Part shown: piece after piece, positions 7,201-64,000 of the stretch
How the letters are laid out: every line of letters begins with the position of its first letter
Numbering within the stretch: the stretch's first letter is position 1
Assembly (NCBI RefSeq): GCF_013122565.1
Contig: NZ_CP053258.1
DNA from: Escherichia coli
GTDB taxonomy: Bacteria > Pseudomonadota > Gammaproteobacteria > Enterobacterales > Enterobacteriaceae
Length of the DNA: 64,000 bases
Strand: one strand, 5' to 3'
The notes under the pieces: generated by a model
What the model saw: the letters and a program-made list of their open reading frames with translations, nothing else
What the model was told of the DNA's origin: nothing
Database searches by the model: none
Made by a program: the position numbers and the translations under genes

Positions 7201-7257
<57 letters not shown>

Positions 7258-8307: not shown

Positions 8308-8311
<4 letters not shown>
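7298..8311 (-). CDS. mhpE: 4-hydroxy-2-oxovalerate aldolase
   Basis: 337 aa, [20 protein letters not shown]-terminus (HMGL-like aldolase). Confidence 0.93.
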
Positions 8312-10073
<1,762 letters not shown>

Positions 10074-10940: not shown

Positions 10941-10957
10941 CATCTTCTCCTGCATAT

Positions 10958-11902: not shown

Positions 11903-11903
11903 A

Positions 11904-13568: not shown

Positions 13569-13709
13569 TTCAGTACCTCACGACTCGGACAAAATGCCGT
13601 TGCGCGCACAGTACAGCGCAACTTACTTTGTTAAAAACATGTAAATGATTTTTTATTGTGCGCTCAGTATAGGAAGGGTGTTTTCGGCTACAATCAAAAC
13701 ATGCCCGAA

Positions 13710-13726
13710 TGTGCACCAGGTGCACA
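13710..13726. promoter_or_regulatory. 17-bp perfect palindrome tgtgcaccaggtgcaca in the mhpR-mhpA divergent control region (candidate MhpR operator / CRP-like site)
   Basis: Perfect dyad symmetry located between divergent mhpA and mhpR starts. Confidence 0.55.
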
Positions 13727-13758
13727 ACGTTGTTTTAACTATAGAAATGTCAATTAAT

Positions 13759-14592: not shown

Positions 14593-14706
14593 TTACGCCA
14601 ATGTGTAATTTGGCCCATTCTCATCGTTATTCGCCCATTTGCCCACATGCACAGTACGGGCTGCACGCTACGCTAATGACATCAATACTGTGATGTGGAG
14701 CAAATC

Positions 14707-15483: not shown

Positions 15484-15502
15484 TTCGGAGATAAAGAGTG
15501 TT

Positions 15503-16456: not shown

Positions 16457-16650
16457 TAGCGCGTGCAGGAAAGTCAATTCAGGTTCCCCACTAACCAACT
16501 GAATTGTGGGAAGATTGCTTTATCAGGCTTAATACAAGCCATTCGGTAACAGTTTTTCTCGCTCCCGCCCTGTCACTCCTGTTGATTGTGCAATGTTACA
16601 AAAATGCTTCATTTTTGTTGATTTTCTACTGTGATCAATTCGGCAATATC

Positions 16651-16703
16651 CTCTCCTGAATTTCACCAGACTACTTCCAGCCCATTCGCAATATCAGGAG
16701 AGA
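16651..16703 (+). promoter_or_regulatory. Leader inverted repeat (ctctcctga ... tcaggagag) overlapping the Shine-Dalgarno of the acyl-CoA ligase gene
   Basis: 9-bp perfect inverted repeat; both arms preceded by gcaatatc; 3' arm contains the AGGAG RBS 4 nt upstream of ATG 16707. Confidence 0.35.
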
Positions 16704-16706
16704 CAA

Positions 16707-18263
16707 ATGAGCAGCACCTCCGCCGACTTCCAGAATTTGTATCAGGCACTGAGTCACAGCGCCGCCCGCAGTCCGAATGACCTGGCGCTGGCGTTTGAGG
16801 ATCAGCGCTATATGTACCGCGATTTTCACCTGCGGGTACAGCGGACGATGGCGCAACTTGACCGCAGCTGGTCGTTGCGCAAAGGCGACCGGATCCTGCT
16901 GGCCCTGGGGAATCATCCCGCTTTTTGCGAAGTCCTTTTTGCGGCAGTTGGTCTGGGCATCGAGGTGGTGCCTTTCAGCACTAAGCTTAAGCAGGCCGAG
17001 AGCGAGGAGCTGGTGGGTCATATCGCGCCCCAGGTCGTGCTGTTCGATGCAACCGTGCAGGACTGGCTGAAAAACACCCCCAACGCGCGCGCTGTTTCAC
17101 TTAGTGAATGGCTGGCGCTTTCTCTTCCCGAACCGCTGACTCGCCTGCCGGCCCAGGTTAACCGCGACGACACGGCGGTGATGATGTTTACCTCAGGTAC
17201 TACCGGGGAGCCAAAAGGCGCGATTATCACCCACCATAATCTGCTCTGCGCGATTGACGCCTATACGCAAAAACTGAATCTGACCGCTGCGGATAGCACT
17301 ATTCTGGCGGTGCCTATTTATCACATCACTGGCCTGTCGGCGCTGCTGGCGCTGTTTATTAGCCTTGGTGCGAGCATCTGGCTGCAACACCGGTTCAATG
17401 CCTCGCAGGTGATCAATACCCTGCGCGAGCAAAATATTACCTTTCTGCACGGCTCGCCAACCATCTTTATCCTCCTATGTCAGGCGGCACGCGAAATAAG
17501 CGACAGCCATCCGGGCGATTTTCCCGCGCTACGGACGATCGCTTGCGGTGCGGGCCACCTGAGCGACGGCCTTATCAAAGAGTTAAAAACGCTGTTCCCG
17601 CATACGGCAATTCAGCCGATCTACGGGCTCACCGAAACGACCTCACCCGCGACGATTTTTCCAGGCGACGTCTGGGGTAGCGAGAAATGCGGCAGTTCGG
17701 GCCAGGCGATCCCCGGCCTCACGATTACGATTCGCAACGATCGCCAGCAACGTCTCCCTGCCGGACAAATTGGGCATATCTGGCTGAAAGGCGATGTGGT
17801 CATCCGCGAGTACTGGCAGCACAGCGAAAGACGCCCGAGCTGCGATGAACAGGGCTGGTTTTGTACGGGTGATTTGGGCTATCTCGACGACGAAGGCTGG
17901 CTGTACATCAAAGACCGCAGTAAAGACATGATCAATCGCGGTGGGGAGAAAATTTACTCTCTGGAGCTGGAAAACATTCTCTCTACCTATCGGGGAGTAC
18001 GGGAAGTCGCCGTGATCCCGGCCCCCAGCCCGCTCTATGGTGAAGAGCCGGTGGCGTTTATCGTGCCGGACGGTCAACACCACCTGACAAGCGAAGAGAT
18101 CCTCTGCTGGCTGAAGGTCAAAATTGCCCGCTTTAAGCTTCCGGCACGCATTATTTTCACCCGCATTTTACCCCGTACCCATAACGGAAAAGTGAGCAAA
18201 CAACAGCTCAAAACACGCCTTGCGGAATCGATCATCACGTTATCAACGGAGGATAAACAGTGA
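16707..18263 (+). CDS. AMP-dependent synthetase / acyl-CoA ligase (class I adenylate-forming enzyme)
   Basis: 518 aa; AMP-binding motif TSGTTGEPKGA, downstream GYGLTE-like and adenylation core motifs. Confidence 0.85.
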   Translation: MSSTSADFQNLYQALSHSAARSPNDLALAFEDQRYMYRDFHLRVQRTMAQLDRSWSLRKGDRILLALGNHPAFCEVLFAAVGLGIEVVPFSTKLKQAESEELVGHIAPQVVLFDATVQDWLKNTPNARAVSLSEWLALSLPEPLTRLPAQVNRDDTAVMMFTSGTTGEPKGAIITHHNLLCAIDAYTQKLNLTAADSTILAVPIYHITGLSALLALFISLGASIWLQHRFNASQVINTLREQNITFLHGSPTIFILLCQAAREISDSHPGDFPALRTIACGAGHLSDGLIKELKTLFPHTAIQPIYGLTETTSPATIFPGDVWGSEKCGSSGQAIPGLTITIRNDRQQRLPAGQIGHIWLKGDVVIREYWQHSERRPSCDEQGWFCTGDLGYLDDEGWLYIKDRSKDMINRGGEKIYSLELENILSTYRGVREVAVIPAPSPLYGEEPVAFIVPDGQHHLTSEEILCWLKVKIARFKLPARIIFTRILPRTHNGKVSKQQLKTRLAESIITLSTEDKQ

Positions 18264-19852
18264 GTAACAAATTTATCAGCGCCCATGAAGCGGCGCAGTT
18301 AGTCACCAGCGGCGATACCGTCTGCACCGTCGGGATGACGCTTATCGGCGCGGCAGAATCCATTTTAGCGGCCATTGAAGCGCGCTTTCTGACCGAGGGC
18401 ACACCGCGCGATCTGACATTGTTACATGCCGCAGGGCAAAGCGATCGGCAGCGCGGCATTCAGCACTTCGCCCATCAGGGAATGGTGACGCGGCTTATCG
18501 GTTCGCACTGGGGCCTTGCGCCGCGCTGGATGGCGATGATCAACAACAACGAAGTGGAAGCCTGGTGCCTGCCGCAGGGGCAGATCGTCCATCTTTATAG
18601 CGCGATGGCCGCCGGACTTACAGGGCGACTCTCCCCCGTCGGGCTGGGTACTTTTGTCGATCCGCGCATAGAAGGCGGGCGGATGAATGCCCGTACCCGC
18701 GAAAAGCCAGATCTGATTGAGCATGTGATGTTTCGCGGCGACGAGTATCTGTTTTATCCAGCCATTCCCCTGAACGTCGTCATTGTGCGCGGAACTCATG
18801 CCGATGAAGACGGCAACCTCACTACGGATGAAGAGGTCATGAAACTGGAAGTTCTGCACGCGGTTCTCGCCGCCAGACGTTACGGGGCGAAGGTGCTGGC
18901 GCAGGTGAAATATCGTGTGGCGAAAGGTTCGCTGCATCCGAAAAGCGTCACCGTTCCTGGCAACCTGATCGATGCCATTGTGGTGTGCAACGAGCCGCAG
19001 ACGGATCACCGCCAAAGCTCCAGTTGGGACTTCGATCCGGCACTGTGCGGCGATATCCAGTTGCCCGCAGCGCAGAATGCGCCGCTGCAACTCGACCTGC
19101 GCAAACTTATCGGGCGGATCGCCTGCCGCTATCTGACGCCCGGCTGTGTCATCAATCTTGGCACCGGGATCCCCAATGATGTGATTGGCGCCATCATCCA
19201 TGAAGAACAGCTCGGCGAGCAAGTCACCATCACCGTTGAATCGGGGATCTACGGTGGGCAGCAGGCGGGCGGCGTTGATTTTGGTATCGGTCGTAATCTG
19301 AGCGCGATGATAAGTCACCAGGATCAAATGCTCTATTACAACGGCGCGGGCGTCGATATCACCTTTATGGGTGCCGGCGAGATGGATCCGCACGGTCACG
19401 TCAACGCCACGCGGCTCGGTGCATCCTGCCCCGGCGCAGGCGGTTTTATCGACATCACGCAGAATGCCCGCCACGTCGTGTTCTGCTCCTCTTTTACCGC
19501 CAAAGGGCTGGAGATTGCCTGTGAAAATGGGCAGTTGCATATCCTGCGCGAAGGCGAGGTACGTAAGTTCGTCGCCGGGGTTAATCAGATTTCTTATAAC
19601 GGTGAGCTGGCCCGCAACAAAGGCCAAACCATGCATTACGTCACCGAACGGGCAGTGTTCGAACTACGTCCGCAGGGACCGGTGCTGACGGAAATCGCCC
19701 CCGGCATCGATCTTGAGCGCGACATCCTGGCACATATGGATTTTCGTCCGGCTATCGCCGGGGATCTTAAGGTAATGGACAGCCGTTTATTTGCCCCGCA
19801 GCCCTGTGGCCTGGCGGAACATCTGTCCCACAATTCATCCTCTGACTCATAA
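18260..19852 (+). CDS. Family I CoA-transferase, fused alpha/beta (YdiF-like acyl-CoA:acetate/3-ketoacid CoA transferase)
   Basis: 530 aa; architecture and ESG glutamate region resemble E. coli YdiF; GTG start overlaps ligase stop by 4 nt with GGAGGA SD. Confidence 0.8.
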   Translation: MSNKFISAHEAAQLVTSGDTVCTVGMTLIGAAESILAAIEARFLTEGTPRDLTLLHAAGQSDRQRGIQHFAHQGMVTRLIGSHWGLAPRWMAMINNNEVEAWCLPQGQIVHLYSAMAAGLTGRLSPVGLGTFVDPRIEGGRMNARTREKPDLIEHVMFRGDEYLFYPAIPLNVVIVRGTHADEDGNLTTDEEVMKLEVLHAVLAARRYGAKVLAQVKYRVAKGSLHPKSVTVPGNLIDAIVVCNEPQTDHRQSSSWDFDPALCGDIQLPAAQNAPLQLDLRKLIGRIACRYLTPGCVINLGTGIPNDVIGAIIHEEQLGEQVTITVESGIYGGQQAGGVDFGIGRNLSAMISHQDQMLYYNGAGVDITFMGAGEMDPHGHVNATRLGASCPGAGGFIDITQNARHVVFCSSFTAKGLEIACENGQLHILREGEVRKFVAGVNQISYNGELARNKGQTMHYVTERAVFELRPQGPVLTEIAPGIDLERDILAHMDFRPAIAGDLKVMDSRLFAPQPCGLAEHLSHNSSSDS

Positions 19853-19863
19853 GGAAATTAACT

Positions 19864-20598
19864 ATGAAACTAGCCAGTAAAACGGCCATTGTCACCGGCG
19901 CCGCGCGCGGTATCGGATTTGGTATTGCCCAGGTGCTTGCGCGAGAAGGTGCCCGAGTCATCATCGCCGACCGCGACCCACATGGCGAAGCCACTGCCGC
20001 ATCCCTGCGCGAACAGGGTGCCCAGGCGCTGTTTATCAGCTGCAATATTGGCGATAAAACGCAGGTTGAAGCGCTGTTTTCCCAAGCCGAAGAAGCGTTT
20101 GGCCCGGTGGATATTCTGGTTAATAACGCCGGTATCAACCGCGACGCCATGTTGCACAAACTCACTGAAGCGGACTGGGACACGGTGATTGACGTCAATA
20201 TGAAGGGCACGTTTCTCTGTATGCAGCAGGCGGCAATCCGTATGCGCGAGCGCGGCACGGGCCGCATTATCAATATCGCTTCCGCAAGCTGGCTTGGCAA
20301 CGTTGGGCAAACCAACTATTCGGCGTCAAAAGCGGGCGTGGTCGGGATGACTAAAACCGCCTGTCGCGAACTGGCAAAAAAAGGGGTCACGGTTAACGCC
20401 ATCTGCCCCGGTTTTATTGATACCGATATGACGCGCGGCGTCCCGGAAAACGTCTGGCAAATCATGATCAACAAAATTCCTGCGGGCTACGCCGGGGAGG
20501 CGAAAGACGTTGGCGAGTGTGTGGCGTTTCTGGCGTCCGACGGCGCGCGCTATATCAATGGTGAAGTGATTAATGTCGGCGGCGGCATGGTTCTGTAA
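19864..20598 (+). CDS. Short-chain dehydrogenase/reductase (FabG-like 3-oxoacyl / 3-hydroxyacyl oxidoreductase)
   Basis: 244 aa; TGAARGIG cofactor motif, catalytic YSASK (YxxxK); AAGGA SD. Confidence 0.85.
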   Translation: MKLASKTAIVTGAARGIGFGIAQVLAREGARVIIADRDPHGEATAASLREQGAQALFISCNIGDKTQVEALFSQAEEAFGPVDILVNNAGINRDAMLHKLTEADWDTVIDVNMKGTFLCMQQAAIRMRERGTGRIINIASASWLGNVGQTNYSASKAGVVGMTKTACRELAKKGVTVNAICPGFIDTDMTRGVPENVWQIMINKIPAGYAGEAKDVGECVAFLASDGARYINGEVINVGGGMVL

Positions 20599-20608
20599 GG
20601 GGAAAAAG

Positions 20609-21799
20609 ATGATACAGGCTAATGATATTGTGGTGGTCAGCGGCGTCCGTACCGCTATTGGCACGTTTAATGGCAGTCTTAAGCATACCCACCAGCATGA
20701 CCTGGGGGCAGCGGTCATTCGCGAAGCGGTCAGCCGCGCCGGACTTGCGCCGAAAGATATCGATGAAGTGATCGTCGGCAACGTTGGGCAAATCGCCGAA
20801 AGCGGTTTTATCGCCCGCATCTGCCAGCTTCGGGCGGGGATCCCGCAGGAAAGTACCGCGTATTCGGTTAACCGCCAGTGCGGCTCCGGTCTACAGGCCC
20901 TGGCAGACGGCATGATGCAGCTACAAAGCGGTCAGGCCGATGTCGTCGTCGCCTGCGGAACTGAAAATATGACCCAACTGCCCTACTACCTGCGTAAAGC
21001 GCGGGATGGCTATCGCATGGGTCATGGCGAGCTGGAAGATGGTCTGATTTCTATCCTCACCTGGCCTGAAGGGCCTTATCACAACGGCATCACGGCGGAA
21101 AACGTCGCGCAACAGTTCGGGATCACCCGCGAAGCGATGGACGATTTCGCCTGGTCAAGCCAGCAGAAGGCGCTGAAAGCCATCGCGCAGGATCGCTTTC
21201 GCGAACAGATCCTGCCCCTTGAAGTGCCGGACGGCAAAAAAGCCTCCCGCCTGTTCGCGGTTGATGAACACCCGCGTGACACCCCACGCGAAAAGCTCGC
21301 CACGCTGCGACCGGCATTTAAAGCCGACGGCGTGGTGACGGCAGCCAACTCATCCGGCATTAACGACGGTGCGGCTGCGCTGGTGATGATGACCCGTCAG
21401 CAGGCGGAAAAGCGTGGCTTAACCCCACTAATGCGGATCCGCGGCTGGGCGGTTGCCGGCTGCGGCGCAGATATCATGGGCTTTGGCCCTGCTCCCGCGA
21501 CCCGGCGTCTGATGGACCGTCTCAATATGGATGTCCACGCCATAGATTTAATTGAACTCAATGAGGCCTTCGCCGCCCAGGCGCTGGCGGTGATGAACGA
21601 TCTGCGTCTCGATCCGGCCCGCGTCAACGTTAATGGCGGCGCAATCGCCCTCGGACACCCGGTGGGTGCCAGCGGTGCGATCTTGCCGGTCAAACTCATG
21701 TATGAAATGGCGCGCAGCGGTGCACGTACCGGTCTGGTCACGATGTGCATCGGCGGCGGTCAGGGAATTTCTATGCTGTTCGAGCGCGAAGGCGCTTAG
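20609..21799 (+). CDS. Thiolase (acetyl-CoA C-acyl/acetyltransferase)
   Basis: 396 aa from MIQANDIVVVSGVRTAIG; active-site NRQCGSGLQA, C-terminal GHPVGASG and CIGGGQG motifs; track ORF begins 12 codons earlier. Confidence 0.85.
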   Translation: MIQANDIVVVSGVRTAIGTFNGSLKHTHQHDLGAAVIREAVSRAGLAPKDIDEVIVGNVGQIAESGFIARICQLRAGIPQESTAYSVNRQCGSGLQALADGMMQLQSGQADVVVACGTENMTQLPYYLRKARDGYRMGHGELEDGLISILTWPEGPYHNGITAENVAQQFGITREAMDDFAWSSQQKALKAIAQDRFREQILPLEVPDGKKASRLFAVDEHPRDTPREKLATLRPAFKADGVVTAANSSGINDGAAALVMMTRQQAEKRGLTPLMRIRGWAVAGCGADIMGFGPAPATRRLMDRLNMDVHAIDLIELNEAFAAQALAVMNDLRLDPARVNVNGGAIALGHPVGASGAILPVKLMYEMARSGARTGLVTMCIGGGQGISMLFEREGA

Positions 21800-21807
21800 G
21801 AAAAGAC

Positions 21808-21830
21808 GGCCCGAAGTGGGGCTTCGGGCC
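21808..21830 (+). other. GC-rich hairpin (ggcccgaag tgggg cttcgggcc) between thiolase and MFS genes; no U-tract
   Basis: 9-bp perfect stem with 5-nt loop 9 nt after thiolase stop. Confidence 0.4.
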
Positions 21831-21934
21831 GAGCGTCGTTCGGGCCAGTACCCGGCGACAACCTATGAGCTGACGAACGGGATCGTGTCGATCCCGGCAA
21901 GGCTTCTGACCACGAATACGGGGAAATAATAACC

Positions 21935-23272
21935 ATGTCCGCAATAAATGAAAAGGTGATAAACGGGACGCAGCTACAACGCACCCATAAAAAGATCTAC
22001 CGCCATTTGATGCCGCTACTTATCGTGGCGTACATCATAAGCTTTATTGATCGTACCAATATCGGCATGGCGAAAGCGACCATGTCGGTGGATATCGGCC
22101 TTTCCGCAACCGCATTCGGCCTCGGAGCCGGGTTGTTTTTTCTCACCTACGCAGTGCTGGAGATCCCAAGCAACCTGTTTTTAACCCGAATTGGCGCGCG
22201 GCGCTGGATCGCCCGCATCATGATCACCTGGGGAATCATCTCCTGCGGCATGGCGTTTGTCACCGGACCTACGTCATTTTACGTGATGCGCTTATTGCTC
22301 GGCGCCGCCGAAGCGGGGCTGTATCCGGGCATTATCTACTACCTGACCCTTTGGTTTGGTCGCGAAGAGCGCGCGAAAGCCACCGGCCTTTTCCTGCTGG
22401 GGGTCTGTCTGGCCAATATTATCGGTGCGCCGCTGGGCGGATTGTTATTAAACCTTGATGGTATGTCCGGCTGGCACGGCTGGCAGTGGATGTTTTTTAT
22501 CGAAGGGCTGCCTGCGATACTGCTGGCGTTTGTCGTCTGGCGCAAGCTGCCGGATAAACCTGCCGATGCTCGCTGGCTGGACAGCAACGACGTGCAGGCC
22601 ATTAACGCGGTGCTGGAGAAAGAAGCGCAAGAGACGCGTCATACACCAAACCGCTTCTCCCTCAAAACCGCACTCACCACCCGCGTATTTTTGTTGCTGG
22701 TGCTGATTTACTTTACCCACCAGTTTTCAGTTTACGGCCTGAGTTATTTTCTGCCGGGGATCATTGGTAGCTGGGGCCAGCTTACGCCGCTGCAGATAGG
22801 TCTGCTGACCGCTATCCCGTGGATTGCAGCGGCGGCTGGCGGCATCCTGCTGCCGCGTTTCGCCCGGACGGAACAGCGTTCACGCAGAATGCTGATGGCC
22901 GGATACCTGGTCATGGCCACCGGCATGGCGATTGGTGCAATTTCCGGTCACGGCGTTGCGCTGCTTGGCTTCTCGCTGGCCGCTTTCATGTTCTTCGCTA
23001 TGCAATCCATCATCTTTAACTGGCTCCCCTCGATCATGAGCGGGCATATGCTGGCGGGTAGCTTCGGCCTGCTTAACTGCCTTGGTCTGTGCGGAGGCTT
23101 TCTCGGGCCGTTTATTCTCGGTGCGTTTGAGGATCGAACCGGCGCGGCAACGTCAGGTTTATGGTTCGCCGTCGGGCTGTTGATTGTCGGCGCGTTGGTA
23201 TCTCTGTTCATCAAAGGTTCGTCATCCCTGGGCCATGCTTCGGCAAAACAGGCCTGTGGCGAAAAAGCTTAA
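21935..23272 (+). CDS. MFS transporter, anion:cation symporter (ACS) family-like (hydroxy-acid/aldonate-type permease)
   Basis: 445 aa, 12 predicted TM segments, FIDRTNIG motif typical of ACS-family permeases. Confidence 0.75.
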   Translation: MSAINEKVINGTQLQRTHKKIYRHLMPLLIVAYIISFIDRTNIGMAKATMSVDIGLSATAFGLGAGLFFLTYAVLEIPSNLFLTRIGARRWIARIMITWGIISCGMAFVTGPTSFYVMRLLLGAAEAGLYPGIIYYLTLWFGREERAKATGLFLLGVCLANIIGAPLGGLLLNLDGMSGWHGWQWMFFIEGLPAILLAFVVWRKLPDKPADARWLDSNDVQAINAVLEKEAQETRHTPNRFSLKTALTTRVFLLLVLIYFTHQFSVYGLSYFLPGIIGSWGQLTPLQIGLLTAIPWIAAAAGGILLPRFARTEQRSRRMLMAGYLVMATGMAIGAISGHGVALLGFSLAAFMFFAMQSIIFNWLPSIMSGHMLAGSFGLLNCLGLCGGFLGPFILGAFEDRTGAATSGLWFAVGLLIVGALVSLFIKGSSSLGHASAKQACGEKA

Positions 23273-51037: not shown

Positions 51038-51890
51038 AATTCCCTCCGTAGGTTTGGCTCAGCGCACAACCATCGGCCATGCCATACAGCATGTCGCAGC
51101 CGGAACTGGAGCCAATATGTTTAATTTTTTCTATTGCCTGAGTTGCGTTCCCAGGAATGTCATAAATAATGTTGTGAATAAAACGATGAATATTTTCCCG
51201 GCAGCGTTGTTGTAATGCGGCTTCGAGCGTTATGGCACTTAATAATGTGGTATTATTTCTGCCGCGTTGCAGACCGAGATAAAATTCCTCTTTGTATTTT
51301 TCCGCCGGATGTCCGGAAATAAATAAAATAAGTACCAGTCCGGTCAGATAATCATCGGCTGATGGCGTAAGCCCAATCCCTAATCCCATCATATTAGCTA
51401 CCGCTGAGGCGATATTTTGTTTTTCGTTTACGGCCTGAATAACTGCTTGTCGTTTAATATGTAATTCTTTATTTAACGCCTGATAAAACGGATTATCGCC
51501 GCGATAATTAAACAGGGTTTCATTTTCCCCCAGGTGCTGATGAATAATGTCGTGCCACTGTTGCCAGGCGATAAGGTGAAAATTCACAGCGGTCATTTGC
51601 AAGGTTGGGGACAGCCAACGCTGGCAATGACTCATCTCTATATGAAGATGTTGACCAACCGTAATGCCTTGATCGTCAAACTGAACCTTATCACCATGCC
51701 GGAACAGACCATCAAAGTGAGTGAGTGCCAACCGACAACTGTTTGGCGCATTGTCGTACTCTTCACAAAGCAGCGTTAGCAACTGCTGGCGAGCCGGGAG
51801 TGCGATATTTACCGCTCTGGCAAAGACCTGTTCAACCTGTCCTTGCCCCCGCTGCGCCAGAAAATCAGCATCCGCAGTTAGCGCCCACAC
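51027..51890 (-). CDS. yahE: Uncharacterized protein YahE (DUF2877-like)
   Basis: 287 aa; synteny. Confidence 0.8.
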   Translation of the reverse strand: MWALTADADFLAQRGQGQVEQVFARAVNIALPARQQLLTLLCEEYDNAPNSCRLALTHFDGLFRHGDKVQFDDQGITVGQHLHIEMSHCQRWLSPTLQMTAVNFHLIAWQQWHDIIHQHLGENETLFNYRGDNPFYQALNKELHIKRQAVIQAVNEKQNIASAVANMMGLGIGLTPSADDYLTGLVLILFISGHPAEKYKEEFYLGLQRGRNNTTLLSAITLEAALQQRCRENIHRFIHNIIYDIPGNATQAIEKIKHIGSSSGCDMLYGMADGCALSQTYGGNYVS

Positions 51891-51929
51891 ACACCGTCTT
51901 TCTGGTGTGTTGATAGCAAGCCTCCCGGT

Positions 51930-52535
51930 TTATGCGCCTGCGGCAATCAGTAACTGCGCAATCTCTTCAAAGCCCCGTTCTCGCGCCAGTTCCAGCGGTG
52001 TTTTGCCATATTTATCGGTCAGATGCGGGCTGGCACCGTGTTCCAGCAATAACTGGACAATCGCCTGCTGTTTAATCCCGCCATCATTAAGCACAATCGC
52101 TTCCAGTAGCGGCGTCCAGCCAACATGGTTGGTCTGGTTAACGTTAATATCGGTGTGCGCCAAAAGCTCTTTTACAATACTTAAATGGCCTTTTTCACAG
52201 GCAGGCGTCAGGCCGACACCGCCAAAACGGGTTACGCAATTAAGATCGGGTTTAGCCGGTAAAATAATTCGTAGTAGCGTTAAATCATCGTACAGACAGC
52301 TAATTAAAAAAGGATTTAAACAGGTATGATCTTGTTTATTAATATCCGCTCCGGCATCAATTAATGCCTGAACGCAAGCATATTGCTGATATAAACTTGC
52401 CAGCGTAATTGCCGTTTTCCCGTGGCGATCGCAGGTATTAATATCGACACCCAGCGCAAGGCAGGTTTTTACTTTATCGATATCACCCTGTTGCGCAGCC
52501 AATAAATAGTCGGCAGGTAGATTTTTTATAGTCAT
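51930..52535 (-). CDS. yahD: Ankyrin-repeat protein
   Basis: 201 aa with tandem ankyrin repeats (GKTAITLA, GWTPLLEA, GKTPLELA). Confidence 0.85.
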   Translation of the reverse strand: MTIKNLPADYLLAAQQGDIDKVKTCLALGVDINTCDRHGKTAITLASLYQQYACVQALIDAGADINKQDHTCLNPFLISCLYDDLTLLRIILPAKPDLNCVTRFGGVGLTPACEKGHLSIVKELLAHTDINVNQTNHVGWTPLLEAIVLNDGGIKQQAIVQLLLEHGASPHLTDKYGKTPLELARERGFEEIAQLLIAAGA

Positions 52536-52792
52536 TCACATTCCCCTGGTTTTTGTGGCTGTTTTCGATGAATTGAGAATAGCAACGATAATCTGATAAA
52601 AGAACCCGCTTAAATTTAATTCGCCGTATTTCGCCTTTTTGTTGAATGATGTTCAACAATCTTTTCGCAGTGTGCGGTAGTGCAATATTTGTTTCTTTGA
52701 CCCGATACCCTTTCACTCAATCAGGTTTTATTTCTCTATAGTCTGCACATGTAAGAGTAGCTTTCGTCCATGTCTAACCAGAGGGGAACAAG

Positions 52793-53290
52793 ATGAACGG
52801 ACTCACGGCAACGGGTGTCACCGTCGGTATTTGTGCAGGGCTTTGGCAGTTAGTGTCTTCACATGTCGGGCTCTCTCAGGGATGGGAATTATTAGGAACC
52901 ATTGGCTTCGTCGCCTTTTGCAGTTTTTATGCCGCAGGCGGCGGTAAATCGGGGTTTATCAGAAGTCTGGCGGTTAATTATTCCGGGATGGTGTGGGCAT
53001 TTTTCGCCGCGCTGGCTGCCGGTTGGCTGGCCTCGGTGAGTGGGATTTCTGGGTTCTGGGCCAGCGTGATGACTACCGTGCCTTTCTCAGCGGTAGTGGT
53101 CTGGCAAGGGCGTTTCTGGTTACTGTCTTTTATTCCCGGAGGCTTTCTCGGCATGACGCTATTTTTTGCCAGCGGGATGAACTGGACGGTGACATTACTG
53201 GGTTTTCTGGCGGGTAACTGCGTGGGGATAATTTCAGAATATGGTGGGCAAAAATTAAGCGAAGCGACGACTAAACGCGACGGGTATTAA
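52793..53290 (+). CDS. yahC: Small inner-membrane protein
   Basis: 165 aa, 4-5 hydrophobic segments. Confidence 0.8.
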   Translation: MNGLTATGVTVGICAGLWQLVSSHVGLSQGWELLGTIGFVAFCSFYAAGGGKSGFIRSLAVNYSGMVWAFFAALAAGWLASVSGISGFWASVMTTVPFSAVVVWQGRFWLLSFIPGGFLGMTLFFASGMNWTVTLLGFLAGNCVGIISEYGGQKLSEATTKRDGY

Positions 53291-53381
53291 AAGTTATTCA
53301 AAAATGATTACCCATCTTTAATTGATACCTCTACAGTTATGCCTGGAGAAAATTAAAGTAGAAAATGGCGGGAATGGTTTA

Positions 53382-54314
53382 ATGAACTCAATTTTTACCG
53401 AAGAGAATCTGTTGGCATTTACTACCGCTGCGCGTTTTGGCAGCTTCAGTAAAGCCGCAGAAGAGTTGGGTTTAACCACTTCCGCCATTAGCTACACCAT
53501 TAAGCGTATGGAGACGGGGCTGGATGTGGTGCTGTTCACTCGCAGTACCCGCAGCATTGAGTTAACGGAGTCCGGGCGTTATTTTTTCCGCAAAGCTACC
53601 GACCTGCTGAATGATTTTTATGCCATCAAACGTAGCATAGATACTATTTCGCAGGGCATAGAAGCGCGTGTGCGCATTTGTATTAATCAGCTGCTTTATA
53701 CGCCCAAACACACCGCACGCTTATTGCAGGTACTGAAAAAGCAGTTTCCTACCTGCCAGATTACCGTCACCACCGAAGTGTATAATGGCGTCTGGGATGC
53801 GATTATTAATAATCAGGCGAATATCGCTATCGGCGCACCCGACACGCTGCTGGACGGTGGCGGTATTGATTACACTGAAATTGGCGCGATTCGCTGGGCT
53901 TTTGCTATCGCCCCGGATCACCCGTTAGCCTTTGTGCCGGAACCCATCGCCGAAAGCCAACTGCGTCTCTATCCTAATATCATGGTGGAGGACACCGCGC
54001 ATACGATTAATAAAAAAGTGGGCTGGTTGCTGCATGGGCAGGAGTCAATTCTGGTGCCAGATTTCAACACCAAATGTCAGTGCCAGATTTTAGGTGAAGG
54101 AATTGGTTTTTTGCCGGATTACATGGTCCGTGAGGCGATGGCGCAATCCCTGCTGGTTACCCGACAAATCCATAATCCACGCCAGGATTCACGCATGTTG
54201 CTGGCGACCCAGCATTCAGCAACGGGTCAGGTGACGCAGTGGATTAAAAAACAATTTGCGCCAAATGGCATATTAACGGGGATCTATCAGGATTTACTGC
54301 ATCGGGAGAATTAA
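53382..54314 (+). CDS. yahB: LysR-family transcriptional regulator
   Basis: 310 aa from MNSIFTEENLLAFTTAARFGSFSKAAEELGLTTSAISYTIKRME (LysR HTH). Confidence 0.85.
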   Translation: MNSIFTEENLLAFTTAARFGSFSKAAEELGLTTSAISYTIKRMETGLDVVLFTRSTRSIELTESGRYFFRKATDLLNDFYAIKRSIDTISQGIEARVRICINQLLYTPKHTARLLQVLKKQFPTCQITVTTEVYNGVWDAIINNQANIAIGAPDTLLDGGGIDYTEIGAIRWAFAIAPDHPLAFVPEPIAESQLRLYPNIMVEDTAHTINKKVGWLLHGQESILVPDFNTKCQCQILGEGIGFLPDYMVREAMAQSLLVTRQIHNPRQDSRMLLATQHSATGQVTQWIKKQFAPNGILTGIYQDLLHREN

Positions 54315-54355
54315 TCGCTGCCAACCTCCCGATGCGCTGTGAATAGCGGTTTACA

Positions 54356-55444
54356 TCAACCACCTGCTTTCATTACCCATTCAGAGATAAATTTATTACC
54401 CGGAACTGGCGGGGAGTACAAATAGCCCTGCAAAAAGTGAACGCCTTTACCGATCATTAAATCCGCCTGCTCCTGGGTTTCTACCCCTTCCGCTACGATA
54501 CTCAGACCAGGCTTACGCGCCAGTTCGACAATATTGTCCACAATATGACCGGATATTTCGTCGACACTCGCCATTTGCACAAATGACTTATCGATCTTAA
54601 TAAAATCGACCGGAAACGCCTGCAGATAACGATAGGTCGCATAACCCGTACCAAAGTCATCCAGCGCAAAGGTAATGTTGTGCTGATGAAGGCTGTCAAA
54701 TATCGCTCTGGCTTCTGGCGTTACCGGAATAGGGTTACGTTCCGTTAGCTCGAGAACCAGTTTGATCTTATCGTTTCCTAATTTCTTGACCAGGTTCAGG
54801 CATTCTTTTTCAAATCCCGCGGCCAAAAAACAACCCGCCGAGACGTTGATACCAATATGGAAATTATCCGGCAGCAAATGTTTTACCGGCATCAGAATAT
54901 CCGCAGTCTGTTTCATCAGTTGGCGGGTCATTATGACAATAAGACCGGATGACTCCGCCAGAGGAATAAACTGATCCGGCGGGATGATTCCCGTTTGTGG
55001 ATGTTCCCAGCGGACAAGCACCTCACAGCCCGTCAGTACCCCAGTCTGCGCGCAGAAAACCGGTTGGATCCACGGTTTGAATTCATGGTTTTCCAACGCC
55101 AGACTGATGGCTTCAGGCGTGACGATATGGTGATAGTGATTATCATTAATATATCTGTGACTATTACTACCCGTGGCGGATATGATCTCCGGATTGTACT
55201 GAAAGAAAATATCGCGCCAGAAAGTAATATCGCTCTGAATCCCCAGTTTCTCAAAGAGCTGTTTCTTTTGATGTGAAATGGTCTTTGCACTGCGATTTCT
55301 GTACTGTGATATTTCTGTTACAGACATTCCCTGCATCAGCAGCTTGAGTAGCAGTCGTTCTTTCTCGGATACGCTACCAGGCAATGACAAATGAACCGTT
55401 GTACCGAACTCTTGCAGAAAAACACGAAAATCACATGAATTCAT
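54356..55444 (-). CDS. pdeL: c-di-GMP phosphodiesterase / transcriptional regulator (LuxR HTH + EAL)
   Basis: 362 aa from MNSCDFRVFLQEFG; N-terminal LuxR-type HTH, C-terminal EAL domain (ELTE, DDFGTGY). Confidence 0.9.
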   Translation of the reverse strand: MNSCDFRVFLQEFGTTVHLSLPGSVSEKERLLLKLLMQGMSVTEISQYRNRSAKTISHQKKQLFEKLGIQSDITFWRDIFFQYNPEIISATGSNSHRYINDNHYHHIVTPEAISLALENHEFKPWIQPVFCAQTGVLTGCEVLVRWEHPQTGIIPPDQFIPLAESSGLIVIMTRQLMKQTADILMPVKHLLPDNFHIGINVSAGCFLAAGFEKECLNLVKKLGNDKIKLVLELTERNPIPVTPEARAIFDSLHQHNITFALDDFGTGYATYRYLQAFPVDFIKIDKSFVQMASVDEISGHIVDNIVELARKPGLSIVAEGVETQEQADLMIGKGVHFLQGYLYSPPVPGNKFISEWVMKAGG

Positions 55445-56318
55445 GAACACACCTTTATCTTTTATCGCTGTTCAGTATGAGTGATTACCTGTGGATTCCT
55501 GAGCACACATAAGGGGTAACCATAAACATCAGCGATGCCATACGTATAACATCCCACATCACTATCAATAAGATTATCTTTACCTCTGATGCTCGCTCAA
55601 TAACAGTTACGCTAAATACTTTAAAAAGGTAATCACAAGTCAAACTCAGGAGATAATCACGCAAGAATGCAATATTAAAATTCAGATACTCATTTTGGGT
55701 AATAAAGAAGTAGTTGGACTATTTCAATATTTATAATTTCCCACTACGTACTGGCATCCATTCATGAGCAAAGGCGCATTATATGAATTTAACAATCCAG
55801 ATCAACTGAAAATACCTCTCCCTCATAAACACATAGCGTCAACATTCAATGACATAATGAGTAAAGATGTTGGTTATGCGTACGTATCATTACTCTATGC
55901 CTGTCCCTTAAAAACCCACCCATTAAGACTGAATCCATTCAGCAAATGATAACTAATATTATAGCAATGACAATAAAAACAATATTTAAAACATTCAATA
56001 AAATATCACACACAGATAATTAAACCTTAAATAACAAATTGTTGCGTTAATTTCAGTTGATTTACGATACACATTTCTCATGAATAATGAGTCATTTCAA
56101 ATGATCAGCAATATTTACATTAAATAAGACTAAACTTATTGAACATTCGCAACAGCCCAAATGTAGGTTTTGGCTTGTAATAGTTCTTTTCTTTTTTATT
56201 ATCTGTTGTCTGGTAATCATCAATAGATACTAAGTGCTTAATCGTATAGATATAACGTATCAAGAGGTAGGAGAAACAGCGCCATATGCAGACATGGCGC
56301 GGTTTTATGCAATAACAA

Positions 56319-58352
56319 TCACGCGTCCGGGAACATCACGCTATGGCCCGGCGCTTCACGATGGAGATGGATAAAGTTAAGGTGCCGCTCGTACTGGTCG
56401 AGAATATCGGTGATCACCTGCTCTTTGCTGTAGTCCATCAGGTCGTTGCCCTGGCTGCCTTCTAACAGGAAGGTTTCCAGCCGGTAGTAAGTCGATTTAC
56501 CGCTACGTGCGCGGTAGGTAAAGCCCGGCACCGAATATTGCTGTGGCCAAATCTGATAGACAAAGTTTTGCTCTTCGCCCATATGCACCAACAAATCCAG
56601 ATGCCCCAACTGTTGTCCCTCTTCCGGCGGTAGGCTTTTTAGCTCCACATACGCGCCGCGCAACCGCAGCTCTTGCGCCACTTCTTCCATTGCCGGGTAA
56701 CAGACCGTCTCCATCATCTGTTTAGTGTAACGCGTGCCCGGATAATTCATCAGGCGCGAGAGACGTTTTTTCCAACTCAGGCGATCCTGAAGCCCCAGCG
56801 GTCGCGGCGCGGTATCGCGGTTGGCACTTTCACGGCGGTAATCTTCTACTTTCAGAGATTTATACAACCCCGCCATCACGAAGAAGATCACAAAGCTGAA
56901 CGGCAGCCCCATAATCACCGTGGTGTTTTGCAGCGCGGATATCCCGTTGGTCATCAGCATGCCGAGCGTCAGCAGGCCAATCGCCACCGACCAGAAGACG
57001 CGCAGCCAGCCGGGGGCGTCGCTGTTGATATCTTTAAGCTGCGAGGTGAAATTCCCCAGCACCAGCGCCCCGGAGTCCGCCGAGGTCACATAAAACAGCA
57101 GGCCAGTAATGGTGGCGACGGAGGCGCTAAAGGTAAACGCCGGATACTGCGCCAGCAGGCTGTAGAAGCCGCGCTCCGGATGGACCATCGCTTCCTCTGC
57201 AAATGCCGCGCCGCCGTGGATGATTTCATACAGCGCGCTATTGCCGAACACCGAGAGCCATAACAGCGTGAAGGTAAACGGAATAATCAACGTGCCCAGC
57301 ACGAACTGGCGAATGGTACGCCCACGCGAGATACGCGCCAGGAACAAGCCGACAAACGGCGACCATGCCACCCACCATGCCCAGAAGAAGAGCGTCCAGT
57401 TATTCATCCACTCAACTGGACGGTCGAAGGCAAAACTGTTGAGCGTCATGCCCATAAAGCGATTCACATAGTCGCCAACATTCAGCACCAGTGCATTAAG
57501 CAGGAACGAAGTGTCGCCCATAAACAACACGAACAGGATCAATCCCAGCGCCAGCGCGACATTAAGCTCCGATAACACGCGAATGCCCTTATCGACACCG
57601 GATGTCACCGAGATAGTGGCGATGATCACCGACAAGGCGATCAGTGCCGCTTTCGCCGCCATTGAATCAGGAATATCAAACAGTACGCTCAAGCCATAGT
57701 TAAGCTGCACCACACCGATACCGAGCGTAGTGGCAATACCGAAGATGGTGCCGATCACCGCTGCAATATCCACTGAGTGACCTATCGGCCCGTTAATCCG
57801 TTTACCGAAGATCGGGTACAGCGCCGAGCGGATGGTGAGCGGCAAATTATAACGATAGCTAAAGTATCCAAGCGCCATGCCCATCAGCGCATACATCGAC
57901 CAGCCGGTTAAGCCGTAGTGAAACAGCGTCCAGACCATCGCCTGACGCGCGGCCTCAATCGTCTGTCCCGCGCCTTCCGGCGGCTGCATATACTGCGTTA
58001 CCGGTTCGGCTACGGAAAAGAACATCAGATCGATACCGATCCCGGCAGCAAACAGCATCGCCGCCCAACTCAGCAGACTGAATTCCGGTTTGGATTGTTC
58101 TGGCCCGAGCTTCACCGAACCAAAACGCGAACAAGCGATACAGACCACAAAGACAATATAGAGCGTTGCCGCCAGCAGATAGTACCAACCGAAGGTTTTA
58201 GAGACCCAGTCCAGCGTGCGGCCAATCCACAGGGCCGAGAAGTCGCGAAACAGGATCGTTGTCAGGGAAAACAACAAAATCAGTCCGGCGGAAGTGTAAA
58301 ACACCACCGGATTGATTTTGTCCTTTTCCCTGCTGTGTGAAAGGTCTGTCAT
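56319..58352 (-). CDS. betT: Choline transporter (BCCT family)
   Basis: 677 aa BCCT permease. Confidence 0.93.
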   Translation of the reverse strand: MTDLSHSREKDKINPVVFYTSAGLILLFSLTTILFRDFSALWIGRTLDWVSKTFGWYYLLAATLYIVFVVCIACSRFGSVKLGPEQSKPEFSLLSWAAMLFAAGIGIDLMFFSVAEPVTQYMQPPEGAGQTIEAARQAMVWTLFHYGLTGWSMYALMGMALGYFSYRYNLPLTIRSALYPIFGKRINGPIGHSVDIAAVIGTIFGIATTLGIGVVQLNYGLSVLFDIPDSMAAKAALIALSVIIATISVTSGVDKGIRVLSELNVALALGLILFVLFMGDTSFLLNALVLNVGDYVNRFMGMTLNSFAFDRPVEWMNNWTLFFWAWWVAWSPFVGLFLARISRGRTIRQFVLGTLIIPFTFTLLWLSVFGNSALYEIIHGGAAFAEEAMVHPERGFYSLLAQYPAFTFSASVATITGLLFYVTSADSGALVLGNFTSQLKDINSDAPGWLRVFWSVAIGLLTLGMLMTNGISALQNTTVIMGLPFSFVIFFVMAGLYKSLKVEDYRRESANRDTAPRPLGLQDRLSWKKRLSRLMNYPGTRYTKQMMETVCYPAMEEVAQELRLRGAYVELKSLPPEEGQQLGHLDLLVHMGEEQNFVYQIWPQQYSVPGFTYRARSGKSTYYRLETFLLEGSQGNDLMDYSKEQVITDILDQYERHLNFIHLHREAPGHSVMFPDA

Positions 58353-58480: not shown

Positions 58481-59068
58481 ATGCCCAAATTGGGGATGCA
58501 GTCGATCCGGCGCAGACAACTGATCGACGCCACGCTGGAAGCAATAAATGAAGTGGGCATGCATGATGCGACGATCGCGCAGATCGCCCGCCGGGCGGGC
58601 GTTTCCACCGGGATCATCAGCCACTATTTCAAGGACAAAAATGGTCTGCTGGAAGCGACCATGCGCGATATCACCAGCCAGCTGCGCGACGCGGTGTTGA
58701 ACCGCTTGCACGCGCTTCCTGATGGCAGCGCCGAGCAGCGATTACAGGCGATTGTTGACGGAAACTTCGATGAAACGCAGGTGAGCAGTGCGGCGATGAA
58801 AGCCTGGCTGGCGTTCTGGGCCAGCAGTATGCATCAGCCGATGCTCTATCGTTTACAGCAGGTCAGCAGCCGCCGCTTGCTGTCGAATCTGGTGAGCGAG
58901 TTTCGCCGCGAATTGCCGCGCGAACAGGCACAGGAAGCGGGCTACGGCCTGGCCGCGCTGATTGATGGATTATGGCTGCGCGCGGCACTGAGCGGCAAAC
59001 CGCTGGATAAACCTCTCGCACACTCGCTGACCCGTCACTTTATTACTCAGCATTTACCCACCGATTAA
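58481..59068 (+). CDS. betI: TetR-family choline-responsive repressor
   Basis: 195 aa from [26 protein letters not shown]. Confidence 0.92.
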
Positions 59069-60567: not shown

Positions 60568-62238
60568 TTGCAATTTGACTACATCATTATTGGTGCCGGC
60601 TCAGCCGGCAACGTTCTCGCTACCCGTCTGACTGAAGATCCGAATACCTCCGTGCTGCTGCTTGAAGCGGGCGGCCCGGACTATCGCTTTGACTTCCGCA
60701 CCCAGATGCCCGCTGCCCTGGCATTCCCGCTACAGGGTAAACGCTACAACTGGGCCTATGAAACGGAACCTGAACCGTTTATGAATAACCGCCGCATGGA
60801 GTGCGGACGCGGTAAAGGTCTGGGCGGATCGTCGCTGATCAACGGCATGTGCTACATCCGTGGCAATGCGCTGGATCTCGATAACTGGGCGCAAGAACCC
60901 GGTCTGGAGAACTGGAGCTACCTCGACTGCCTGCCCTACTACCGCAAGGCCGAGACGCGCGATATTGGTGAAAATGACTACCACGGCGGCGACGGCCCGG
61001 TGAGCGTCACCACCTCCAAACCCGGCGTCAATCCGTTGTTTGAAGCGATGATTGAAGCGGGCGTGCAGGCGGGCTACCCGCGCACGGACGATCTCAACGG
61101 TTATCAGCAGGAAGGTTTTGGTCCGATGGATCGCACCGTCACGCCGCAGGGCCGTCGCGCCAGTACCGCGCGCGGTTATCTCGATCAGGCCAAATCGCGC
61201 CCTAACCTGACCATTCGTACTCACGCTATGACCGATCACATCATTTTTGACGGCAAACGCGCGGTGGGCGTCGAGTGGCAGGAAGGCGACAGCACCATTC
61301 CAACCCGCGCAACGGCCAACAAAGAAGTGTTGTTATGTGCAGGCGCGATTGCCTCACCGCAGATCCTGCAACGCTCCGGCGTCGGCAACGCTGAACTGCT
61401 GGCGGAGTTTGATATTCCGCTGGTGCATGATTTACCCGGCGTCGGCGAAAATCTTCAGGATCATCTGGAGATGTATCTGCAATATGAGTGCAAAGAACCG
61501 GTTTCCCTCTACCCTGCCCTGCAGTGGTGGAATCAGCCGAAAATCGGTGCGGAGTGGCTGTTTGGCGGCACCGGCGTTGGTGCCAGCAACCACTTTGAGG
61601 CGGGCGGATTTATCCGCAGCCGCGATGAATTTGCGTGGCCGAATATTCAGTACCATTTCCTGCCAGTGGCGATTAACTATAACGGCTCGAATGCAGTGAA
61701 AGAGCACGGCTTCCAGTGCCACGTCGGATCGATGCGCTCGCCAAGCCGTGGGCATGTGCGGATTAAATCCCGCGACCCGCACCAGCATCCGGCAATTCTG
61801 TTTAACTACATGTCGCACGAACAGGACTGGCAGGAATTCCGCGATGCAATTCGCATCACCCGCGAGATCATGCATCAACCCGCGCTGGATCAGTATCGTG
61901 GCCGCGAAATCAGCCCCGGTGTCGAATGCCAGACGGATGAGCAGCTCGATGAGTTCGTGCGTAATCACGCCGAAACCGCCTTCCATCCGTGCGGTACCTG
62001 CAAAATGGGCTACGACGAGATGTCCGTGGTTGACGGCGAAGGCCGCGTACACGGGCTGGAAGGCCTGCGCGTGGTGGATGCGTCAATTATGCCGCAGATT
62101 ATCACCGGCAATTTGAACGCCACGACGATTATGATTGGCGAGAAAATAGCGGATATGATTCGTGGACAGGAAGCGCTGCCGAGGAGCACGGCGGGATATT
62201 TTGTGGCAAATGGGATGCCGGTGAGAGCGAAAAAATGA
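60568..62238 (+). CDS. betA: Choline dehydrogenase (GMC oxidoreductase)
   Basis: 556 aa starting at TTG ([24 protein letters not shown] fold); AGGAGG SD 5 nt upstream of the TTG; no in-frame ATG between the SD and the FAD motif. Confidence 0.9.
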
Positions 62239-62496
62239 GTCGTGATTTGAACTGACGCAAGTCCCTGCAAAGTTAAGCGTTACCGTCTTGAGATAGGTAT
62301 ACAAAGTCTCATACTTCTCTCTCAACAATCCGAAATAATCGGGTACCCGCGTTTACCGGATCAGGAAGGCATATACTATCCGGTCTGCGCTTTCTACTGC
62401 AATATTTCTAAAAGTTGCGCAACACGCGGCAGGATAGTGCTTTTACGCAAAGAAGCACTTTCTGCCGCCCGGGAAATGCGCGCGTGCTATACGCCG

Positions 62497-62557
62497 TTTT
62501 ACCTGAGATATGACAGAGTAAAGCCCTGTTAAAATACTCTTGTCGTCTCAGGTAAAA
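62497..62557. other. 12-bp perfect inverted repeat (ttttacctgaga ... tctcaggtaaaa) with 37-nt spacer in the AT-rich betA-ykgA spacer
   Basis: Perfect dyad directly visible in sequence; function unknown. Confidence 0.4.
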
Positions 62558-62966
62558 TAAGTGATTAATATCAATCATATATTTTTACAGCAAGACAACC
62601 ACGTACAAACTCAGGATTAATATGTTTTACCGATTCCCCAACATAACCCAAATCAAGCGAACTAATTTGTGCCATTTCTTTCTCTGTCAATGAGAAATCG
62701 ATTTTTGATGGGCATCTGCAATACTCTGAAGCAGACTATAAGGAAAATTCTACTGCCCCCCTCCATTCCGCATGAACAATGAGTCTACGTTAAAACGTAA
62801 CCTCAAATTAGTATGTGGATTTTGATATCACTTATGCAAAAAATTCATTAATAATGTAGGACTGAAACCTCTCTATTTTCGGGGACAACGAAGCAGACGC
62901 TACCAGTGCTTTTGCCTTCGGCCTTGCTGTTTTTGATACACTTAGGGCCCAGGGCATAACGAAAAT

Positions 62967-63857
62967 GTGCGATATGACGAAGAATTAATGGAGAATGTGA
63001 TGATCAGGCAGAAGATTCTACAGCAGCTCCTGGAGTGGATTGAGTGCAATCTCGAGCACCCTATTTCAATTGAAGATATCGCACAGAAATCTGGCTACAG
63101 CAGACGCAACATCCAGCTTCTGTTCCGAAATTTCATGCATGTGCCTTTGGGAGAATACATTCGCAAACGAAGGCTTTGTCGTGCCGCCATTCTTGTCCGG
63201 CTCACCGCAAAATCTATGCTTGATATTGCACTCTTTTTGCATTTTGATTCACAGCAGTCATTCAGCCGCGAATTTAAAAAGTTATTCGGCTGCTCTCCCC
63301 GTGAATACCGCCACCGTGATTATTGGGATCTCGCAAATATCTTCCCTTCTTTTTTAATACGTCAACAGCAAAAGACGGAGTGTAGATTAGTCAACTTTCC
63401 TGAGACACTTATTTTTGGCAATTCATTTAAATATGACATTGAAGTGTCGAATAAATCACCGGATGAAGAAGTCAAACTGCGACGTCATCATTTAGCCAGA
63501 TGTATGAACAATTTTAAGACGGATATCTATTTCGTCTCCACGTTTGAACCGTCAACAAAATCGGTCGATTTACTCACAGTTGAAACTTTTGCCGGTACGG
63601 TATGTAAACAAACCGATTCAGAGATGCCGAAAGAGTGGACAATTAACCGAGGACTGTATGCATCTTTCCGCTATGAAGGTGAGTGGAAGCACTACCCTGA
63701 ATGGGCGCGAAACCTCTATCTGATGGAATTACCCGCCAGGAGGTTAGCCAGAGTGAACGGCAGTGATATTGAGCGGTTTTATTACAATGAAGATTTCGTA
63801 GAAAAGGATAGCAATGATGTTGTTTGCGAAATATTTATTCCTGTTCGTCCGGTTTAG
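62967..63857 (+). CDS. AraC-family transcriptional regulator with C-terminal GyrI-like effector-binding domain (possibly ykgA)
   Basis: 296 aa; N-terminal AraC HTH pair (ISIEDIAQKSGYSRRNIQLLF ... QQSFSREFKKLFGCSPREYR); symbol not asserted because identity is inferred only from position. Confidence 0.75.
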   Translation: MRYDEELMENVMIRQKILQQLLEWIECNLEHPISIEDIAQKSGYSRRNIQLLFRNFMHVPLGEYIRKRRLCRAAILVRLTAKSMLDIALFLHFDSQQSFSREFKKLFGCSPREYRHRDYWDLANIFPSFLIRQQQKTECRLVNFPETLIFGNSFKYDIEVSNKSPDEEVKLRRHHLARCMNNFKTDIYFVSTFEPSTKSVDLLTVETFAGTVCKQTDSEMPKEWTINRGLYASFRYEGEWKHYPEWARNLYLMELPARRLARVNGSDIERFYYNEDFVEKDSNDVVCEIFIPVRPV

Positions 63858-63911
63858 CTGTCGCTATATCTAAATGAATTTATAACGAGACTACTGTCAG
63901 GCAATTCAATA

Positions 63912-63950
63912 AATAATGGCGTTGAAGATGTCAACGCCATTATTGTTTAT
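63912..63950 (+). terminator. Rho-independent terminator after the AraC-family gene
   Basis: aataatggcgttga agatg tcaacgccattatt, a 14-bp perfect stem followed by gtttatt. Confidence 0.7.
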
Positions 63951-64000
63951 TAGAATGCTACTTTCATATCCTTAAAATATTATTTAGCCGCTTCTTCTCC

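Follow-up and report, generated by a model that had tools for sequence, protein, structure and literature searches.

In Escherichia coli K-12 MG1655, the interval between betA and ykgA spans 8,440 bp, and the genes follow each other in the order betA, ykgH, ykgG, ykgF, ykgE, rclR, rclA, rclB, rclC, ykgQ, ykgA (b0300-b0311), ykgQ being a 129-bp pseudogene. The first-pass annotation of the DNA studied here had given this gene order correctly, but its estimate of ~10 kb for the interval exceeds the 8.44 kb measured. The genes rclA, rclB and rclC each add to HOCl resistance under the control of RclR, and rclABCR is restricted to a few enteric genera (PMC7527725). The RclA protein reduces HOSCN with high activity (PMC9335216). 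As to the neighbouring ykgEFG genes, the part of PMC7984374 that cites earlier work on K-12 states that no lactate phenotype has been reported, and the same paper describes an lctP-dld-ykgEFG-like module on plasmid pFec10 (PMC7984374).

The interval takes other forms in other strains. In O55:H7 it measures ~15.1 kb, the additional length being due to the ipbA-hyxRAB island and to an intact gene for an aldo/keto reductase (AKR) instead of ykgQ. Strain 2018-01-1CC has lost the rcl operon from the same chromosomal neighbourhood as the window, by which we mean the whole 64-kb stretch of DNA analysed here. That loss differs from the present one in being bounded by IS1, which replaces the 5' end of ykgE, rcl, the AKR gene and ykgA, whereas ykgH, ykgG and ykgF are intact. 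Here we describe a further allele, in which betA is followed by ykgA after a short non-coding spacer. We found no description of this allele in the literature; it is previously undescribed but ordinary and consists of well-known genes. RefSeq annotates it implicitly: the entries for genomes that carry it list betA, an AKR pseudogene of 129 bp and an HTH protein.

Results

The 3' end of the window has the gene order yahC, yahB, pdeL (yahA), betT, betI, betB, betA, non-coding interval, ykgA, hairpin, fdeC (Table 1), and the genes flanking the interval have the same order and orientation in K-12. The betA call rests on TIGR01810 (NCBIfam; 1035 bits vs a cut-off of 732), and its length and start match those of RefSeq betA in wlxctx60. 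As start of ykgA we assign ATG 63000, which is annotated in every RefSeq orthologue and is preceded by GGAG, leaving a non-coding spacer of 761 bp (62239-62999). The first-pass annotation had reported an AraC-family gene about 730 bp downstream of betA: the adjacency holds, whereas the size has to be corrected, because the earlier spacer end at 62966 was set by GTG 62967, the first possible start of the open reading frame, in frame with and upstream of the ATG. That the spacer is AT-rich is likewise correct, its GC content ranging from 35 to 49% as compared to 55-62% in betA; it is not featureless AT-rich DNA, however, as remnants of ykgG and of AKR/ykgQ are recognisable in it. Two small open reading frames on the minus strand of the spacer (62408-62578 and 62832-62957) gave no match in Pfam or NCBIfam.

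Table 1. Features of the betA-ykgA region. Positions are those of the window; blocks of the spacer were mapped by local alignment to the K-12 and O55:H7 loci, whose positions are given in coordinates of the respective locus sequence.
Feature	Position	Strand	Remarks
betT	56319-58352	-	
betA (choline dehydrogenase), left border of the spacer	60568-62238	+	TTG start, 556 aa
betA-distal intergenic DNA, kept	62239-62297	.	first 21 bp well conserved; rest aligns weakly with K-12 14577-14520
ykgG remnant, piece 1	62309-62367	-	final ~15 codons with the stop codon, plus 11 bp of downstream sequence; 80% identity, K-12 13465-13408
ykgG remnant, piece 2	62362-62449	-	codons ~167-196; 84-88% identity to K-12
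junction filler, 41 bp	62450-62490	.	without clear homologue; weak, gappy alignment to the next 58 bp of ykgG
convergent rclC/AKR intergenic remnant	62491-62570	.	collinear with K-12 6660-6569; begins 67 bp past the K-12 rclC stop
hairpin, 12-bp perfect arms and inner 9-bp stem	62497-62557		begins 14 nt past the AKR/ykgQ stop codon, minus strand
ykgQ-like AKR pseudogene	62571-62699	-	last 42 codons and stop; 40/42 identical to intact O55:H7 AKR
two further AKR fragments	62691-62739 and 62738-62753		
AKR-ykgA divergent intergenic (ykgA upstream) region, intact	62754-62999	.	96% identity to O55:H7 14902-15165; collinear with K-12
ykgA orthologue, intact	63000-63857	+	285 aa; Rob-like AraC/XylS DNA-binding and GyrI-like domains
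hairpin, 14-bp stem with T-rich tail	63912-63944		between convergent ykgA and fdeC; candidate bidirectional terminator, right border of the unit
fdeC	window end (last bases only)	-	

As compared to K-12, which keeps this DNA, a total of ~7.7 kb is missing from the interval: ~1.04 kb with ykgH, 62 bp within ykgG, and 6,597 bp extending from ykgG codon ~166 through ykgF, ykgE, rclR, rclA, rclB and rclC. Searches of the 64-kb window for rclA/B/C/R, ykgE, ykgF and ykgH returned neither nucleotide nor protein matches, RclR showing generic AraC similarity to other regulators only, and the ykgG fragment is the sole piece of the block found there. Thus, the absence of ykgEFG, ykgH and rcl that had been reported from the sequence is real, both at the locus and throughout the window, which covers 64 kb of a genome in which rcl or ykgEFG could sit elsewhere.

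Chromosomal homologues account for all of the spacer with the exception of 41 bp. Its left part retains two decayed pieces of ykgG, which in K-12 ends at position 13454 of the locus sequence. Piece 2 is also recognisable at the protein level (YkgG aa 167-195, 76% identity in tblastn), and is out of frame due to the ~62-bp internal deletion that separates the two. The main junction lies at 62490/62491. To its right, the sequence up to 62999 is collinear with K-12 from 67 bp past rclC, through ykgQ, to the ykgA start, with 91.6% identity. The 41-bp filler to its left contains, in inverted orientation, a short copy of the sequence on its left (62433-62442 / 62453-62462); it was also tried as rclC-downstream or ykgG sequence, which yielded nothing beyond the weak ykgG alignment listed in Table 1. 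By itself, the 42-aa AKR remnant has no match in Pfam or NCBIfam. K-12 has the same ykgQ-type AKR truncation including both internal deletions, and its ykgA upstream region is collinear as well; judged from this shared structure, the AKR truncation is older than the deletion. Just past rclC, K-12 possesses a 10-bp perfect GC-rich hairpin (GGCGTCAGGC...GCCTGACGCC; 6661-6700), which is absent from the window: the main breakpoint falls inside its 3' arm, of which ACGCC alone is kept.

The gene to the right of the spacer had been described as an AraC/GyrI-like regulator, and the domain searches agree. Its N-terminus is an AraC-type double helix-turn-helix (HTH_18, 68 bits; HTH_AraC, 59 bits; both above the Pfam gathering score), while residues 127-283 match the GyrI-like family PF06445 with 43 bits (cut-off 26). 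Alignment with the translated ykgA pseudogene of K-12 revealed 209 identical residues among the 220 that can be aligned (95%), and the gene is flanked by the ykgQ/AKR remnant upstream and fdeC (eaeH) downstream, as in K-12, O55:H7 and wlxctx60. On the strength of this identity and of the conserved flanks, the gene is to be regarded as the ykgA orthologue, as the earlier annotation had presumed. In K-12, ykgA is a pseudogene cut by IS3, whereas the ykgA gene in the window is intact; the strain is therefore a natural source of an intact copy. Only four contigs on record encode exactly this YkgA protein. YkgA shares with Rob (PDB 1D5Y, 7VWY) the two-domain architecture, with a double-HTH AraC/XylS domain at the N-terminus and a GyrI-like ligand domain at the C-terminus, and it aligns over its full length with both structures. 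An identification as Rob itself, the AcrAB activator, was considered and rejected, as scores stayed far below the cut-offs (NF012228, 193 bits vs 380; NF011701, 172 vs 426). By these profile scores YkgA is a Rob paralogue, not Rob.

In a consensus scan of the spacer, no sequence between betA and ykgA could be recognised as an intrinsic terminator, and the hits for promoter and terminator consensus sequences remained at chance level. The two genes are now co-oriented at a distance of 761 bp, and read-through from betIBA into ykgA may be possible. Downstream of ykgA, the hairpin at 63912-63944, with the arms AATAATGGCGTTGA...TCAACGCCATTATT, is a likely bidirectional terminator serving ykgA and fdeC.

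A 12-bp perfect inverted repeat had been noted within the spacer at 62497-62557, and we can confirm it: the arms occupy 62497-62508 and 62546-62557 and enclose a 37-nt loop, and when the spacer was dinucleotide-shuffled 5000 times, an equally perfect 12-bp repeat with a loop of up to 60 nt arose only 12 times. The longer hairpin built on it has a dG of -28.5 kcal/mol (z = -5.9). Both arms and the loop reside within the rclC/AKR intergenic block that is collinear with K-12 and do not span the junction. The same hairpin is present in K-12, O55:H7 and MB53 with one to three arm mismatches, three of them in K-12, where the loop is 12 bp longer than in the window; taking K-12 and O55:H7 together, the loops are 12-13 bp longer. 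The hairpin is perfect only in the haplotype found in the window, and in the MB53 haplotype the stem is interrupted by a C-C mismatch. Since the imperfect form exists in the undeleted K-12 and O55:H7 loci, the deletion did not create the inverted repeat. With a 14-nt apical loop, an A/U-rich outer stem and no T-run, the structure does not resemble an intrinsic terminator; indeed, on neither strand is the stem followed by a U-tract, and the consensus scan for terminators passes over 62497-62557. A search of Rfam 15 with both strands of 62000-64000 gave no match at E <= 1, and compensatory pair changes in the hairpin numbered zero among only four distinct alleles. Most likely, the hairpin represents an old 3'-end structure of the AKR transcript that played no role in the deletion.

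The first-pass annotation had listed the locus as a synteny difference from K-12. This is correct, but the difference is not confined to the strain, as the same junction of betA, spacer and ykgA is shared by 8 of the 5,426 complete E. coli genomes searched. Two independent assemblies (GCA_018578885.1 and SRR11451197) share the architecture with 99.3% identity over 11 kb, and a search for the exact junction in JGI metagenome contigs returned zero matches. Five of the complete genomes (wlxctx60, 6EVA, UTME-7, PT62 and LP5-1) carry the haplotype of the window, and the remaining three (MB53, LHM10-1 and CP52E) a second, MB53-type haplotype with identical breakpoints. The latter differs from the window at 48 positions in 761 bp (~6%) and has a 9-bp duplication in addition to its imperfect hairpin. 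In this haplotype (MB53 and LHM10-1), the A-run that ends betA (window 62228-62235) is also longer by one A, which shifts the stop codon and yields a BetA of 562 rather than 556 aa. Bear, pigeon, poultry, pig, beef and human sources have yielded the carriers, whose genomes are mostly small; in several of them, further copies of IS1 or ISEcp1 are inserted into ykgA or next to it.

In the segment that can be compared with undeleted alleles, the two haplotypes are 95.9% identical to each other and 95.3% identical to O55:H7. That is, they are as distant from one another as from O55:H7, which indicates that the allele is old relative to the diversity of E. coli. A different picture emerges within the haplotype of the window, where the five genomes differ from it at zero to two positions over 925 bp (62128-63052), with the same tract ends in all. 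At the rate of betA, ~31 differences would be expected in this tract, and the bet and ykgA flanks of these carriers indeed differ from the window by 3-4%. A near-identical tract embedded in divergent flanks shows that the spacer allele has moved between lineages by homologous recombination.

Homology to wlxctx60, 6EVA and UTME-7 begins at position 56279 of the window; left of betT (~56257-56318) the window has pdeL (yahA), yahB and yahC, as does K-12, whereas the three other strains have the ehaA autotransporter gene at this place, in UTME-7 as a truncated pseudogene remnant. In betI, positions 58500-58750 show 22 mismatches in 250 bp to every comparator, including the 99.3%-identical assembly, which resembles a short stretch imported by recombination in this strain alone. 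When 24-kb segments of 27000-64000 of the window were searched for at >=99% identity, none of the 5,426 complete E. coli genomes qualified, the best reaching ~96-97%. The source thus seems to be an E. coli-like lineage that is rare and branches deeply.

Loss of rcl extends beyond the carriers of this allele. rclA is detectable in 5,145 of the 5,426 complete genomes and missing in ~5%, indicating that its loss is recurrent. Probes for rclA and ykgF found no match elsewhere on the chromosome in six of the carriers, but they did find matches in LHM10-1 and CP52E, which contain the spacer allele as well. In LHM10-1, an IS-flanked module of L-lactate permease (lctP), dld and ykgEFG is located ~22 kb from the spacer (locus 13677-22924) and matches the one of plasmid pFec10. 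Moreover, rclA is also encountered on plasmids. As judged from this distribution, the rcl/ykgEFG genes are a mobile pool that is repeatedly lost and regained.

A search of genome contigs with strict exact YkgA peptide patterns retrieved three loci, one from Escherichia sp. E1V33 and two from contaminated MAG fragments. Like the window, E1V33 has the ykgA-fdeC pair and the divergent arrangement of AKR and ykgA, and it lacks rcl. Unlike the window, its ykgGFE and AKR genes are intact, and it has neither the bet operon nor the hairpin of the rclC-side intergenic region. In this locus (1-15245), the yahA-side flank, 92.6% identical to 51075-56256 of the window, joins directly to ykgGFE, followed by the intact AKR gene, ykgA and fdeC; the bet operon, ykgH and rcl are all missing. 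E1V33 looks like the state before the insertions rather than a deletion scar, and its organization suggests that bet, ykgH and rcl were separate insertions into an older backbone.

Discussion

Taken together, the data make it very probable that an old chromosomal deletion, or a short series of deletions, left the 761-bp interval as a scar. The allele represents an ordinary polymorphism in gene content. Such an event or events would have removed ykgH (~1.04 kb) and 62 bp inside ykgG, as well as a 6.6-kb block reaching from ykgG codon ~166 through ykgF, ykgE, rclR, rclA and rclB to 67 bp past rclC. What is left is a non-coding residue comprising ~60 bp of betA-distal DNA, the out-of-frame ykgG pieces, filler, the rclC/AKR hairpin region, the AKR pseudogene and the region upstream of ykgA. 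The allele is passed between lineages by homologous recombination via the conserved betA and ykgA flanks.

The alternative that this lineage never had ykgEFG and rcl at the locus, K-12-type strains having gained the block by insertion, gains some credit from E1V33, whose locus without bet, ykgH and rcl implies that, over a longer span of time, the block was put together by insertions, and from the lack of rcl or ykgH gene remnants in the window. For ykgG it is contradicted by the spacer itself: as two ykgG coding pieces remain, including the stop codon, the gene must once have been complete at the locus, and a spacer built from ykgG and AKR/ykgQ remnants speaks for loss, not original absence. 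At 12-20%, the divergence of the ykgG remnant is at or slightly above the synonymous rate (pS 0.10-0.13 for betA/betB, window vs K-12), which fits decay without constraint. Regarding rcl, the block at 62491-62570 corresponds to sequence adjoining rclC in rcl-positive strains such as K-12 and O55:H7, and it is not found beside AKR in the rcl-less E1V33. From this retained rclC-proximal sequence and the formerly intact ykgG gene, we infer that rcl was present in the ancestor, and we regard original absence as very unlikely. The case is weaker for ykgH, which may never have been present in the haplotype of the window, because E1V33 displays a ykgGFE-AKR-ykgA backbone without bet, ykgH and rcl. 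Involvement of a mobile element, with the 12-bp inverted repeat as the terminal repeats left behind by an IS or MITE, might be suspected from the statistically unusual repeat, situated on the right-hand side of the main junction at a distance of ~7 bp, from the IS1-mediated loss of the region in 2018-01-1CC, and from the IS1 copies beside ykgA in MB53, UTME-7 and PT62. Yet arms and loop belong to sequence collinear with the undeleted K-12 and O55:H7 loci, which form the same hairpin, and the spacer contains no transposase fragment, target-site duplication or IS homology, leaving this origin scarcely credible. Still less needs to be made of a collapsed or misjoined contig that creates a false adjacency of betA and ykgA: the breakpoints are identical in eight closed genomes, which different laboratories produced, and in two additional assemblies of independent origin, and this reduces the probability of such an artefact to almost nothing.

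It might also be asked whether the scar is functional, that is, whether hairpin and remnants are kept by selection as a terminator or insulator between betIBA and ykgA or as a small RNA. The strength of the hairpin, its perfection in the haplotype of the window only, the co-orientation of betA and ykgA with no obvious intrinsic terminator between them, and the age of the allele and its spread by recombination would be compatible with such a role. Nevertheless, we consider it highly improbable, given that the hairpin lacks a U-tract, a terminator call and an Rfam match, that the promoter scan stayed at chance level, and that the stem carries the C-C mismatch in MB53 with no compensatory changes among the four alleles. 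Moreover, the allele is rare, as is evident from its frequency in complete genomes and its absence from the JGI metagenome contigs. More speculatively, the scar may represent a 'null' haplotype of rcl/ykgEFG that has been maintained since ancient times, persists at low frequency and is exchanged between deep-branching Escherichia lineages and ordinary E. coli because loss of inflammation-defence genes is favoured in some hosts. This idea seems unlikely to us; if it were true, the sharpened hairpin might insulate betIBA from the intact ykgA gene.

If the interval is a deletion scar, as we favour, carriers without a second rcl copy can be expected to have a lower HOCl/HOSCN tolerance, because RclA, RclB, RclC and RclR are gone. 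The practical value of the finding is modest, and nothing in it should surprise the specialist. The scar marks a lineage that probably lacks the HOSCN reductase RclA and the rest of the Rcl system, which is used in studies of host inflammation. It also provides an example of a deletion allele that is old and rare and still moves between lineages through its conserved flanks. The betA-ykgA interval would appear to have been assembled from separate insertions, i.e. bet, ykgH and rcl, as well as hyx in O157/O55, and to have been lost again in different ways.
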